This document shows, piece by piece, positions 3,935 to 48,175 of a stretch of DNA of 64,000 nucleotides. This DNA is from Hydrogenophaga sp. (GTDB taxonomy: Bacteria > Pseudomonadota > Gammaproteobacteria > Burkholderiales > Burkholderiaceae_C), in the NCBI RefSeq assembly GCF_030158645.1, contig NZ_JAOASO010000144.1, positions 8,815 to 72,814 on the forward strand. The letters are read 5' to 3'. Below the pieces are notes generated by a model that was not told where the DNA came from, did not search any database, and worked only from the letters and a program-made list of their open reading frames with translations. Each line of letters starts with the position of its first letter. Within the stretch, counting starts at the first letter, position 1. Position numbers and translations under genes: made by a program.

Positions 3935-4723
3935 ATGACACCCCACGCATTGCTCGACCACATCGACCAAGGCCGCCTCTGGCCTGAACCCTCCGGCCTC
4001 TCGCTCGACGCCGCTTACGCGCAAGCACTGGCGGTGCGCCAGCTGCGTATGGCGCGCGGCGAACAACCGCGCGGCTACAAGATCGGCTTCACCAACCGGA
4101 GCATCTGGCCACGCTACAACGTGTTCGCGCCCATCTGGGGCAGCGTGTGGGACAGCACGCTCACGGTGTGCGACGGTGAGGGCAGCGTGTCGCTGGCCCA
4201 CACCTGCCAGCCAAGGCTGGAGCCCGAGGTGGTGTTCGGCCTGAAAGCCACGCCCGCACCCGAGGCCACGCTCGACGGGATTTTTGCGGCCATCGACTGG
4301 GTGGCACCCGGCTTCGAGGTCGTTCAGTCGCACCTGCCGGACTGGAAGTTCTTGCCGCCCGACACGGTGGCCGATGGTGGATTGCACGCTCGCCTGCTGG
4401 TGGGCCGTCGCACGCCGGTGCGCGATCTCGCAAACGGCGCCGCAGCGCTGGACGAACTGCTCGCGCAAGCCCGCGTGAGCCTGCTCAAGGGCGGTGCGGT
4501 GGTGGAAGAAGGCCAGGGCTCGAACGTGCTGGACAGCCCGCTGCGCGCGCTGCTGCACTTCACACAGACCCTGCGCGACTGCCCCGGCGCGCCCGACCTG
4601 CAGGCCGGCGATGTGGTCACCACCGGGACATGGACCGATGCCTGGCCGGTAACGCCGGGTGAACACTGGACCGCCCGTTTCTCCTCACCGCTGCCCAGGC
4701 TTGACGTGACTTTCACGGGTTGA
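3935..4723 (+). CDS. 2-keto-4-pentenoate hydratase-like (FAA hydrolase superfamily)
   Basis: GYKIGFT, PRLEPEVVF, AGDVVTTGT motifs. Confidence 0.85.
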   Translation: MTPHALLDHIDQGRLWPEPSGLSLDAAYAQALAVRQLRMARGEQPRGYKIGFTNRSIWPRYNVFAPIWGSVWDSTLTVCDGEGSVSLAHTCQPRLEPEVVFGLKATPAPEATLDGIFAAIDWVAPGFEVVQSHLPDWKFLPPDTVADGGLHARLLVGRRTPVRDLANGAAALDELLAQARVSLLKGGAVVEEGQGSNVLDSPLRALLHFTQTLRDCPGAPDLQAGDVVTTGTWTDAWPVTPGEHWTARFSSPLPRLDVTFTG

Positions 4724-4814
4724 CCCGCGCCGGTGCTTGCAGGTGAAACCCTCTAAACACAAGGCTGGAGCCTTGGTAGATTCGTCCGACATACCCACAA
4801 CGGAGACCTTCTTC

Positions 4815-6506
<1,692 letters not shown>

Positions 6507-6518
6507 GGTCGGGCCGGT

Positions 6519-6992
6519 TCAACCGGCCTGCGTCAGGCGCTTGAGAACGCCATCGGCGCCCTGCTCGCACAGGCGCATCACCACCTCGAAACCCTCGGCG
6601 TTGCTGTAATAGGGGTCGGGCACTTCGAATGTGCCCGGTACACCGGCGTACTCCAGAAACAGGTGCAGCTTGTGCTGGTGCTCGGGGGGACAGACTCGCC
6701 GCAGGTTGGCCAGGTTGTCACGGTCCATGGCGAGGATGAGGTCAAACAGCTGGAAGTCCTCGTCCTTCACCTTGCGCGAGCGCTCGTTGAGGATGTGGTG
6801 GTAACCACGCGCCTGGGCGAGCGTGATGGCCCGGCGATCGGCCTTTTCGCCGCGGTGCGCGCCGTAAGTCCCAGCCGAGTCCAACACCACCCGGTCGTTC
6901 AGTTGGCGGCGCTGCACCTCGGCGTGCATCACGCTGGCGGCCATCGGCGAGCGGCAGATGTTGCCCATGCACACGAGAAGGATCTTGGTCAT
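6519..6992 (-). CDS. Low-molecular-weight protein-tyrosine phosphatase
   Basis: VCMGNICRSP P-loop; VPDPYY. Confidence 0.93.
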   Translation of the reverse strand: MTKILLVCMGNICRSPMAASVMHAEVQRRQLNDRVVLDSAGTYGAHRGEKADRRAITLAQARGYHHILNERSRKVKDEDFQLFDLILAMDRDNLANLRRVCPPEHQHKLHLFLEYAGVPGTFEVPDPYYSNAEGFEVVMRLCEQGADGVLKRLTQAG

Positions 6993-44643: not shown

Positions 44644-46185
44644 TCACCGGAACACCTTGACGGCCTGAGCCAGTCGTTGAGCACGACTGCCCAGCGATTT
44701 GGAAGCCTCGCTGGACTGCTCCACCATGGAGGCGTTCTGTTGCGTCATCTGGTCGAGCTGGCTCACCGCGGCATTGACCTGACCGATGCCCGTGCTCTGC
44801 TCCCGGGCTGAGCGGCTGATGTCGGTGATCATGCGGGTGACCGATTGGGCTTCCCTCAGGATGGATTCCATGGCGCGACCCGCCTCCGCGGTGAGCGCTT
44901 GTCCGTTCTCGACCCGCTCCGAACTGTCCGTGATCAAGGTCTTGATTTCCTTGGCTGCCTGCGCGCTGCGCTGGGCCAGGTTGCGAACTTCGCCCGCCAC
45001 GACGGCAAATCCCCGGCCCTGTTCTCCTGCGCGCGCGGCTTCCACCGCTGCATTGAGCGCCAGGATGTTGGTCTGGAAAGCAATGCCATCGATCACCGAA
45101 ATGATGTCGGTGATGCGCCGTGAACTCGTGCTGATTTCGTCCATGGTCTTCACCACGTCGTTCACGATCAGGCCACCGGCCCGTGCGGCCTCACTGGCTT
45201 TTTCGGCCATCGTGCTGGCCTGCACGGCGGTTTCACTGGTGGTGTTGACGGTGGCGGTCATCTGCTCCATGGACGCAGCGGTTTCCTCCAGGTTGGAGGC
45301 GGCTTGCTCGGTGCGCACACTGAGATCCCGGTTGCCTTCGCTGATTTCGCGGCTGACGTTGCTCACGCCGTCGATCTGGACGCTGACATCGTCCAGCAAG
45401 GCCCGAAGGTTCAAGCCGGACTGGTTGACCGTGCGCATCAGCATGCCGATTTCGTCCACCCGATCCAGCTGTTAGTTGCTGCCGGGCTGACCGGCGGCCA
45501 CCGATTGCGCCTGGCGCACCACGCGCTGCAACGGCGCCACGATTTGCCGCTCCAGCCACCACCCCAGCGCCGCCAACATGACGGCCACCTGGGCGCTCTG
45601 CACCACGGCATCCGACGTGGGCAGGAGGTAGAACACCGACGCGGTGATCGCACAGAACGCCATCACCATGGGACAGAGCACGCGGGCGCGCAGCGACGCT
45701 GTTTGCGTCCACGACAAGAGGCGTGCCGCGCCGGTGCGCACGATGAGCCCCTTGTGAAAGGCCAGAGAGCCTTGCTCTCCTCTGACGAAACGGCCGTACA
45801 GGTTCTCGGCGGCCTGCACTTCCGTGCGCGAGGGTTTGGTGCGCACCGACATGTAGCCCACCAGCCGCCCCTCGCGAACCACCGGCGTCGCATTGGCCCG
45901 AACCCAGTAATGGTCCCCATCCTTGCGGCGGTTTTTCACCAGCGCCGTCCAGCTCTGGCCCGCTTTGAGGGTGGCCCACATGTCGGCAAACGCTTCACGG
46001 GGCATGTCGGGGTGACGAACCAGGTTGTGTGGTTGACCCACGATTTCTTCGGCGGTGAAGCCGCTGACCGCCAGGAAAGACTCGTTGGCGTAGGCGACGT
46101 GACTGTCCACGTTTGTCGTGGACAGAAGTGTGGCGTTCTCCGGGAAGTCGTATTCGCGTTGCGTGACAGGAAGGTTCTGGCGCAT
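44644..46185 (-). pseudogene. aer: Aer-like PAS aerotaxis receptor interrupted by one in-frame TAA (45472-45474)
   Basis: MRQNLPVTQREY PAS, HPDMP, KNRRKDGDHYWV; reading frame continues AAC TAA CAG CTG GAT CGG GTG GAC GAA into HAMP and MCP domains. Confidence 0.88.
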
Positions 46186-46564: not shown

Positions 46565-47491
46565 TTACCGGATGGTCACAGGCGCGAGCGCGCGCGTGAG
46601 GCTGGCCTCGCCACGGCCATGCAGCTGGACCTTGTAGCCCTTGATGGTGTCCTGGCGCGCGGTGTTGAGCAGCTGGTTGGTGATCTGCACCGGCGTCGCC
46701 TTGGTGAACTTGCTGCCCAGCACCGCGGCGTAACCGGTGATCACGGGGGCCGCGAACGAGGTGCCGTACAGGCCGGTCTGGGCGCCTTCCACACCGACCA
46801 CCAGGAACTGCTTCTGCACCGCCGTGTCGGTGCCGGCGGTGTTGGAGTAAGACGCCAGCGTGGCGGGCGCGGCCTTGGTGCCGTTGGTGTTGAGCGCACC
46901 CACGTAAATGGCGGTCGGGGCGCCCTTGAGCGCGAGGTTGAGGTAGTCGGTCTGGCCGCGGGCGTTGCGACCGAGCACGGCGATGCCGTCGTTGCCGGCG
47001 GCCTTGGAGATCACGGCGGTGCCGTTCTTGGCGTAGGTGATGATGGAATTTTCCTGCGCGCTCCAGCGAATCTGGCTGGCGCTGTAGCCGGCGGCGGCCA
47101 TCATGCCGTAGCTCAGGTTGAGCACGTTGAGGCCCTTGCTGAGCTTCACCGCGGTGCCGCTGGTGAAGTCCTGCGTGGCCACACTGGCCAGCGGCGCGAT
47201 CATGCCGGCCTCCATGGCGGTCCACTGGCCGTGGCGCAGCCGCTGGCTGGCGGTGCCCAGCTTGCCGTTCAACAACGAGGCACTGCGAAAGTCGTCGACC
47301 ACGGTGATGGTCACCCCTTGACCCTTGTAGCCCTTGGTCCATGCGTCACCAACCTCGGTGCTCATCCACCCGGGCGTGGCGGCCGAGGCCGCCAGCGCGG
47401 TGTCGATGGTGGCTTCGCCGTCCTGGGCGAAGACGGCAGTGGCACCGAGGGCGCCGCAAAGGGCCACGGCGAGTGTGGCGGGGTGTTTCAT
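46565..47491 (-). CDS. Secreted S8 (subtilase) serine protease lacking a propeptide
   Basis: Signal ending AVFA; triad VVDD, RHGQW, GTSFAAP; oxyanion AAGND. Confidence 0.88.
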   Translation of the reverse strand: MKHPATLAVALCGALGATAVFAQDGEATIDTALAASAATPGWMSTEVGDAWTKGYKGQGVTITVVDDFRSASLLNGKLGTASQRLRHGQWTAMEAGMIAPLASVATQDFTSGTAVKLSKGLNVLNLSYGMMAAAGYSASQIRWSAQENSIITYAKNGTAVISKAAGNDGIAVLGRNARGQTDYLNLALKGAPTAIYVGALNTNGTKAAPATLASYSNTAGTDTAVQKQFLVVGVEGAQTGLYGTSFAAPVITGYAAVLGSKFTKATPVQITNQLLNTARQDTIKGYKVQLHGRGEASLTRALAPVTIR

Positions 47492-47518
47492 GGGGGTCTT
47501 TCTGCTGGGTTGGACTGG

Positions 47519-48175
47519 TCAGAACGCGTGGGAGAACAGGACCGACACCTGCCGCTGGTCACGGGCGGTGTCGTTGAACAGGTAGCGCAGCGTCTCGGTC
47601 GGCTCGAGTTCGGACGCGGCCAGGCGGCAGTTCACCGCCTGCACACCACCGATGTCGCCGTAGTCGGCGGTGCAGGGGCGCTCGCGCAAACGGCCGCCCA
47701 GCGTGGTGGTGGCGCGCAGCGTGAACGTGGTGCGGCGGCCAAGGCGCGCCTGGTGAATGAGGCCGAGCTTGAAGCTGGGCGAGATGCGGTACTTGACGCC
47801 CTGCTCGCCCGTGCCCACGCCCCAGATGAGGCCGGTGTCGCGGGTGAGCTGGGTCATCCAGGCGATCCGAACGTCGGTCCAGCGGGTGCTGTACCAGGCG
47901 GCAAAGTCCACGCGATCGCCACCCGACGATTCAAAGCCCTGGCCCTTGAGGCCCCGCATCCGGCCGGAGAGGTCGGATCCCTGCCGGATCTCGATCAGGC
48001 TGGTCGAGCGGGCCGATGGCACGGCAAGCGCCCAGTCAGCGTCGCTCCATCCTGCGGCCCGCACGCCGCTCCCGGTTGCAAGGCCGAGCAACAAGCACCC
48101 CAGCACCCGCGCGCGGCCGATGTTCAACGCCGACAGCGTCGGCCAGGGGGATGGGGTGGGGTGGGGCTGGGTCAT
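47519..48175 (-). CDS. Hypothetical secreted protein, possible outer-membrane beta-barrel
   Basis: Signal-like N-terminus, amphipathic strands, terminal QVSVLFSHAF. Confidence 0.6.
   Translation of the reverse strand: MTQPHPTPSPWPTLSALNIGRARVLGCLLLGLATGSGVRAAGWSDADWALAVPSARSTSLIEIRQGSDLSGRMRGLKGQGFESSGGDRVDFAAWYSTRWTDVRIAWMTQLTRDTGLIWGVGTGEQGVKYRISPSFKLGLIHQARLGRRTTFTLRATTTLGGRLRERPCTADYGDIGGVQAVNCRLAASELEPTETLRYLFNDTARDQRQVSVLFSHAF

Follow-up and report, generated by a model that had tools for sequence, protein, structure and literature searches.

A subtilase gene without a propeptide region and a gene for a small exported beta-rich protein, inherited as a pair in Alpha- and Betaproteobacteria

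The gene pair and its products

The window analysed here is a stretch of 64,000 nucleotides from Hydrogenophaga sp. (assembly GCF_030158645.1, contig NZ_JAOASO010000144.1). At positions 46565-48175 it contains two genes, both on the minus strand and separated by a spacer of exactly 27 nucleotides. The upstream gene encodes an exported protein, hereafter called the partner, and the downstream gene encodes a subtilase of the peptidase family S8. The two genes are conserved as a pair, and the partner is considered below as a possible external chaperone and inhibitor of the protease. The features of the pair are the following:

47519..48175, minus strand: partner gene, 218 residues from ATG, exported protein (open reading frame; TGA stop at 47519-47521; ATG conserved in near relatives)
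48056..48175, minus strand: partner signal peptide, residues 1-40, with n-region, hydrophobic segment VLGCLLLGLATGSGV and VRA|A cleavage site (A-x-A-type site conserved in homologues)
47522..48004, minus strand: partner folded core, residues 58-218 (confidence of the AlphaFold model over residues 60-218, hydrophobicity pattern, coevolution for the strand order)
47627..47674, minus strand: Cys168-Cys183 loop CTADYGDIGGVQAVNC, probable disulfide (Cys invariance, hairpin couplings)
47522..47548, minus strand: partner C-terminal strand VSVLFSHAF with near-invariant terminal Phe (family sequences)
47492..47518, minus strand: intergenic spacer of 27 nucleotides; TGA plus nine codons, the genes being in-frame (sequence)
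46565..47491, minus strand: S8 subtilase gene, 308 residues, with signal peptide, variable linker of about 19 residues and bare catalytic domain (PF00082, Foldseek, family alignment)
47426..47491, minus strand: S8 signal peptide, residues 1-22, ...AVFA|QDG (sequence and homologue alignment)
47294..47296, minus strand: codon of the catalytic Asp66 (VVDDF), invariant in 133/133 relatives
47231..47233, minus strand: codon of the catalytic His87 (RHGQWT), invariant in 133/133 relatives
46991..46993, minus strand: codon of the oxyanion-hole Asn167 (AAGND), invariant in 133/133 relatives
46757..46759, minus strand: codon of the catalytic Ser245 (GTSFAAP), invariant in 133/133 relatives

The protease displays the features that characterize the family S8, namely the D/H/S order of the catalytic residues, the oxyanion Asn and a significant match to PF00082 (45.3 bits, cut-off 21.8), which is limited to residues 118-280. 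Asp66, His87, Asn167 and Ser245 are all strictly conserved in the alignment of 133 relatives. With Foldseek, the model was matched to subtilisins with an E-value of about 1e-10 and a target-normalised TM-score (TM) of about 0.6 at about 20% identity, and by this modelled structure the protein is a divergent subtilisin. The nearest solved sequences found by profile are the autotransporter Ssp (E = 2.6e-7) and a mycosin, both with E-values of about 1e-7.

The signal peptide of the protease ends at AVFA22 and is followed by about 19 variable residues, the first conserved block starting at W42. Among 109 homologues the median position of the catalytic Asp is 64 (range 52 to 106), so that no member has space for an I9 propeptide of about 75 residues. 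No match to PF05922 (I9) was detected in the window proteins, whose organisation is not that of a pre-pro-subtilisin. At the other end, the chain stops at the usual subtilisin C-terminus (...HGRGEASLTRALAPVTIR) without any extension, and the mature enzyme is a minimal catalytic domain of 285 residues. A preliminary description of the locus, made from the sequence alone, had attributed to the 308-residue protein a complete D/H/S triad but neither space for an I9 domain nor a C-terminal barrel, and had placed the gene of a secreted protein 27 bp upstream. All these readings are borne out.

The length of the S8 linker varies from 20 to about 100 residues across the family. In three Rhodobacterales proteases (L052 4746-5906; L061 4744-5739; L083 949-2169) the signal peptide is separated from the catalytic domain by a long linker of low complexity, which is made of poly-Gly runs or DPPAE repeats (Gly- or Pro/Glu-rich) and contains no domain.

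The partner begins with a Sec-type signal peptide composed of a long n-region, a hydrophobic core and the signal peptidase I site VRA|A. No conserved lipobox was found in the homologues; the Cys present in the hydrophobic region is incidental, and lipoprotein variants of the partner were rejected on this basis. Neither the window protein nor the 58 family members match any Pfam family at E<=1. There was likewise no match in NCBIfam or PADLOC, nor among PDB sequences at E<=10 by sequence or profile search. A profile search over 1.84 billion representative proteins (E<=1e-3) recovered only 183 relatives, all of them stand-alone proteins of about 200 residues (at most 265) and none of them fused to another domain. 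The partner thus represents an undescribed family, without described sequence relatives, which is at present annotated only as hypothetical protein. Membership of the pair in an anti-phage defence system was also considered and rejected, since in PADLOC the protease has only a generic partial subtilase similarity (E = 7e-9) and the partner is unmatched.

Two features of the partner are almost strictly conserved. On one hand, exactly two Cys (C168 and C183) are present in 133/133 relatives and, on the other hand, the chain ends with Phe in 331 of the 366 family sequences (91/92 when only non-redundant full-length sequences are counted). Both the Cys pair and the terminal Phe had been noticed in the window protein by the preliminary description, and both prove to be properties of the family. 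Upstream of the terminal Phe, position -5 is Y/F/L and positions -7 and -9 are L/V/I.

Linkage and distribution of the pair

The partner profile was used to scan species genomes and metagenomes; among the stretches matched, 141 and 194, respectively, encode a relative, and 160 loci (80 per collection) were returned. Together with one locus fetched earlier (L010), 161 loci were analysed. In 145 of them the partner gene is immediately followed, on its own strand, by an S8 gene of this clade, and nine others have an S8 nearby in another arrangement. The contig end is too near to judge in five loci, and in two there is room but no S8. The S8 clade is therefore found beside the partner in 154 of the 156 informative loci, and a chance neighbourhood of the two genes is rejected by this recurrence. 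For the reverse sampling, from the protease, 200 genera were taken at the level of the family and 400 genomes at that of the order: all seven genomes with a match to the S8 clade, the window's own included, have the partner immediately upstream. Co-occurrence, which the preliminary description had named as a check on the association, holds in both directions. The pairwise distances among the partners are correlated with those among the proteases (r = 0.67, Mantel p = 0.001), and the partner evolves about 1.2 times faster than the protease.

About 140 species genomes contain the partner. The hosts belong to the Betaproteobacteria (Comamonadaceae, Rhodocyclaceae and others) and to the Alphaproteobacteria (Rhodobacterales, Mesorhizobium, Sinorhizobium). 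The pair is rare (5-6 of the 200 genera) and its flanks are unrelated between hosts; it behaves therefore as a mobile two-gene cassette, and it is self-contained. In the window, it is flanked by an acyl-CoA ligase gene upstream and by an Aer-type chemoreceptor gene downstream, neither of which is conserved beside the pair at other loci.

Several loci depart from the usual arrangement. The partner is followed by two tandem S8 paralogues in an uncultured betaproteobacterium and in several Mesorhizobium (L016 4817-6584; L066, L070 and L074, about 4580-6691). In Rhodobacterales and metagenomes, the S8 gene is convergent on the opposite strand (L071, L086, L090) or lies upstream of the partner (L072, L093, L108). 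As the genes stay adjacent despite the changed order or orientation, the linkage survives rearrangement. The 1-Mb plasmid pMspAR07d of Mesorhizobium sp. AR07 carries the cassette (L085), and one Mesorhizobium chromosome has two copies (L074, L080); this fits horizontal spread and duplication. A Comamonadaceae-like pair was also met in metagenome-assembled genomes entitled Synechococcus, Chitinophaga pinensis, Akkermansia muciniphila or Bordetella parapertussis (L013, L019, L032, L056 and others), records that are probably mislabelled or mis-binned.

The type II secretin GspD was detected above the curated cut-off in 11 of 28 host genomes. It is present in the window's genome but missing from a complete genome of that genus. 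An extracellular meeting of the partner and the protease can thus not be general.

In the window, the two genes share their reading frame, and if the TGA is read as a residue a fusion of 536 residues is obtained. Among the 145 same-strand loci, however, the genes are in-frame at 49, about one third, which is the chance expectation. Read-through is consequently no conserved feature; a programmed read-through fusion was rejected, and the shared frame of the window looks accidental. A scan for promoters and terminators gave nothing above chance.

Downstream of the pair, the Aer-type chemoreceptor (44644-46185, minus strand) is split into an N-terminal PAS part of 237 residues and a signalling part of 271 residues of the methyl-accepting chemotaxis protein type by an in-frame TAA at 45472-45474, inside the HAMP region. 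This corresponds to a nonsense pseudogene, a strain variant or an assembly error.

Models of the partner and of the complex

The partner was modelled with AlphaFold2 from an alignment of 58 rows, whose query row (P0001) is identical to the window protein apart from T34S, a substitution within the signal peptide. The predicted local distance difference test score (pLDDT) is above 90 over residues 60-218. The signal segment is helical with low confidence, and the stretch that follows it, up to residue 57, is variable and disordered. The model comprises six long strands (b1 58-65, b2 100-110, b3 114-126, b4 129-144, b5 149-165 and b6 about 200-218), a helix (68-76), a hairpin (79-91) and a cap (166-199) containing C168-C183. 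The four strands named in the preliminary description are all predicted as such (E102-109, E114-121, E134-144 and E149-160), in the region of high pLDDT.

Coevolution within the partner was calculated by a mean-field method with an effective number of sequences (Meff) of 227. It reveals the couplings P167-A180, A170-V181 and E165-C183 of the cap hairpin, and the helix 68-76 is coupled to the upper portions of b3 to b6. The hydrophobic and the polar faces of the sheet were compared for their coupling with the cap segments, and the difference is not significant.

For the complex, a paired alignment of 43 rows was built from the window and 42 other in-frame loci, read through their stop codons. 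Another alignment, in which the fused query was combined with unpaired homologues of the partner and of S8, was discarded because MAFFT had aligned the two families together. With the paired alignment, AlphaFold2 gave a predicted TM-score (pTM) of 0.71 for the 536-residue read-through fusion, of which 96 residues are disordered (partner leader, spacer, S8 leader and linker). From the pTM formula, a value of 0.51-0.55 (about 0.52) is estimated for folded domains without mutual placement and a value of 0.70-0.72 for an inter-domain error of 4-5 Å. The value obtained lies clear of the first estimate, and a specific complex of the partner and the protease is therefore predicted.

Role of the partner and comparison with known systems

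We propose tentatively, with a probability of about 0.45, that the partner is an external chaperone and temporary inhibitor of the propeptide-less protease, analogous but not homologous to ORF2, which serves the Aeromonas subtilase ASP. The near-obligate pairing, the absence of a propeptide from S8, the Sec export of both proteins and their predicted association support this proposal. Further arguments are the coevolution within the partner, which favours an open six-strand meander, the small share of hosts with GspD and the precedent of ASP-ORF2. According to it, both proteins would reach the periplasm via Sec, where we expect the complex to be located. The novel beta-rich domain of the partner, of about 160 residues and with one probable disulfide, would bind the catalytic domain one-to-one, as a separately encoded stand-in for the missing propeptide. 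It would aid or stabilise the folding of the protease, and the latter would become active only upon dissociation of the complex or degradation of the partner. The near-invariant C-terminal Phe may be placed in the S1 pocket as a P1-like product mimic. Such a product-like role in the active site, for which ORF2 as summarised in PMC5638518 offers a model, is a possible explanation of the terminal Phe other than the signal for the beta-barrel assembly machinery (BAM) suggested in the preliminary description.

Several points weigh against this proposal. Many S8 domains, such as autotransporter passengers and mycosins, fold without a propeptide, so that a chaperone is not indispensable. The partner shares neither homology nor fold with I9 or ORF2. 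The complex is inferred from the overall pTM of the fusion compared with a formula estimate. Coevolution between the two proteins (Meff 69) was unreliable and was set aside as evidence: its top scores equal the best scores within the proteins and are directed toward the neighbourhood of the active site, but they correspond to single outliers or to clade-level associations. The charges offer no support either, since both proteins are basic and no complementarity was found. The remaining points concern the resemblance of the partner to outer-membrane proteins. Hydrophobic residues occur in alternation before the terminal Phe (-3, -5, -7 and -9). The turns are short (TRDT, LGRR) at the end of the sheet where both termini lie, and the loops are long at the other end. 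In b2 to b6, one face bears a strongly hydrophobic stripe of four to six residues and the opposite face is rich in Gly/Ser/Thr/Arg. Finally, the 50 best Foldseek matches of the partner, although insignificant, are almost all outer-membrane barrels (FapF, OccK8, OmpA, FadL).

From these last features comes the strongest alternative, in which the partner would be a small beta-barrel integral to the outer membrane, either a monomer or an oligomer, which BAM inserts via the C-terminal Phe and which anchors or exports the protease at the cell surface; the proximity of S8 to the autotransporter Ssp among solved structures would agree with it. We consider it unlikely. The combination of a signal peptide with a C-terminal aromatic beta-signal, which the partner does have, is not exclusive to proteins of the outer membrane. 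Only six long strands are predicted, against at least eight transmembrane strands in the closed barrels of established integral outer-membrane proteins. The five neighbouring pairings b1-b2 to b5-b6 have coevolution band scores of 1.05-1.75, but the pairing b1-b6 that would close the barrel scores 0.70, within the non-adjacent background of 0.50-0.75. Strand b1 sets E/D62 and R/K64 on the hydrophobic side, and T58, L60, T108, W118, I131 and L163 of the hydrophobic face are nearly invariant, which is unusual for positions facing lipid. In the PDB, no Foldseek match of the partner falls below E = 0.1 and the TM values of the top 50 are of 0.2-0.28, even against eight-stranded barrels. None of the 58 family members has an outer-membrane, autotransporter or Omp85 match in Pfam. 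In a barrel, moreover, the cap would face outward, and in the 17 of 28 hosts lacking GspD the protease has no evident route across the outer membrane. The modelled partner fits better an open curved sheet with its hydrophobic face buried under the cap and perhaps also under the protease; a lipid-exposed barrel fits the coevolution, charge and invariance data less well.

The preliminary description had deduced a two-gene system, either similar to a split autotransporter or of a chaperone/anchor type, outside the named subtypes of type V secretion. The pair indeed matches none of the named subtypes. The protease matches PF00082 only and has no C-terminal PF03797 domain in the same chain, as a type Va autotransporter would have; no two-partner secretion domain was detected on it in Pfam; and for type Vb, in which the TpsB is an Omp85-type protein of about 550 residues with POTRA domains, the partner with its 218 residues lacks any Pfam family, as do the other members compared, and none of the 183 representatives exceeds 265 residues. 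The chaperone or anchor part remains reasonable in view of the co-occurrence and of the predicted association. The reading as an outer-membrane barrel or a split autotransporter is weakened by the strand number, the background-level score of b1-b6 and the Foldseek results given above, to which is added the lack of similarity of the partner to autotransporter or Omp85 domains.

With still lower probability, the partner could be a dedicated substrate or pro-protein of S8, the predicted complex being then an enzyme-substrate complex. Strict pairing, co-inheritance and predicted association would suit an enzyme and its single substrate equally well. Many propeptide-less S8 proteases, for example NalP, SphB1 and the mycosins, are narrow processing enzymes, and ahead of its folded domain the partner has the variable, disordered N-terminal segment described above. 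No conserved cleavage motif is seen in this segment, however; the conserved regions all lie inside the compact, confidently folded domain, and no effector or structural function can be recognised in the partner.

Equally improbable is a stable regulatory or specificity subunit, the partner acting as an adaptor in a periplasmic heterodimeric protease comparable to NlpI-Prc or LbcA-CtpA. The linkage and the predicted complex are compatible with it and the signal peptides place both proteins in the periplasm; since many hosts have no type II secretin, the protease probably works inside the envelope. But the known adaptors are tetratricopeptide-repeat lipoproteins encoded apart from their protease, nothing here points to a recruited third party, and the missing propeptide together with the gene order favours a pro-domain surrogate. 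A new minimal outer-membrane beta-sheet protein (a six-strand or oligomeric barrel) that, aided by BAM, carries or holds S8 at the surface in a two-gene type V-like system unrelated to autotransporters and Omp85 appears the least probable of all.

Subtilases are the classical example of propeptide-dependent folding. If the partner is an external chaperone, the outsourcing of the propeptide would have arisen more than once, with an unrelated partner family of a different fold, and the pair would offer a simple two-protein system for the study of protease folding and inhibition in trans. We know of no subtilase family other than ASP-ORF2 described with a separately encoded chaperone. A membrane-embedded partner would instead represent a new type of outer-membrane protein. 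The confidently modelled domain of the partner, which has no sequence or structural relative, would moreover give a name to its family.

The closest system for comparison is that of Aeromonas sobria, in which, as reported in PMC5638518 citing Kobayashi 2015, the propeptide-deficient subtilase ASP needs the adjacent ORF2, a temporary inhibitor during folding whose C-terminus occupies the catalytic site (PDB 3WQB; Pfam PF18492 ORF_2_N; Kobayashi et al. 2015, J Biol Chem 290:11130). To the extent of that account, the window pair resembles it by a Sec-exported subtilase without propeptide and an adjacent gene for a small exported protein, conserved together; the periplasmic binding and the position of the chaperone C-terminus in the catalytic site are features of ASP-ORF2 itself, the binding being only predicted here. 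The differences are also clear. The partner has no Pfam or PDB sequence match in the searches given above and ORF2 is outside its top 50 Foldseek matches; the gene order is reversed, the partner gene being upstream; ASP is kexin-like with a P-domain, whereas the S8 of the window consists of the minimal catalytic domain; and the host bacteria, which belong to the Alpha- and Betaproteobacteria, mostly lack a type II secretin.

With the I9 propeptide (PF05922), the partner would share the proposed role of foldase and inhibitor, and its upstream gene corresponds to the N-terminal-side position of the propeptide. Both end with an aromatic residue (P1): the propeptide of subtilisin BPN' ends in ...AHAY and the partner in ...SHAF, a likeness that serves as a lead and not as a test. 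However, the partner is a distinct chain that carries a signal peptide of its own, and its domain is about twice as long as the alpha/beta propeptide, mostly beta and provided with the probable disulfide.

Lif/LipH-LipA and CpaB-CpaA are further examples of adjacent genes, in which a private periplasmic steric chaperone serves one exported hydrolase (PMC13381987, PMC4713064); the gene adjacency and the single exported hydrolase are found here as well, and a periplasmic complex is proposed. Lif/LipH and CpaB are anchored in the inner membrane, Lif is helical, and they serve type II secretion substrates. The partner differs by its cleavable signal peptide, its beta fold and its hosts, most of which lack GspD. 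The S8 autotransporters (Ssp, PDB 8e7f; NalP; SphB1) also have the S8 domain directly after the signal peptide, without I9, but continue in the same chain into a 12-strand PF03797 barrel, while the S8 of the window ends with the catalytic domain and the six strands of the partner have no detectable closure. In the dentilisin of Treponema denticola (PrcB-PrcA-PrtP), a subtilase is part of an envelope complex and its accessory genes lie just upstream in the same operon (PMC8167434); the window pair has no homology with this three-protein complex of the spirochaete outer sheath, of which PrtP and PrcB are lipoproteins.

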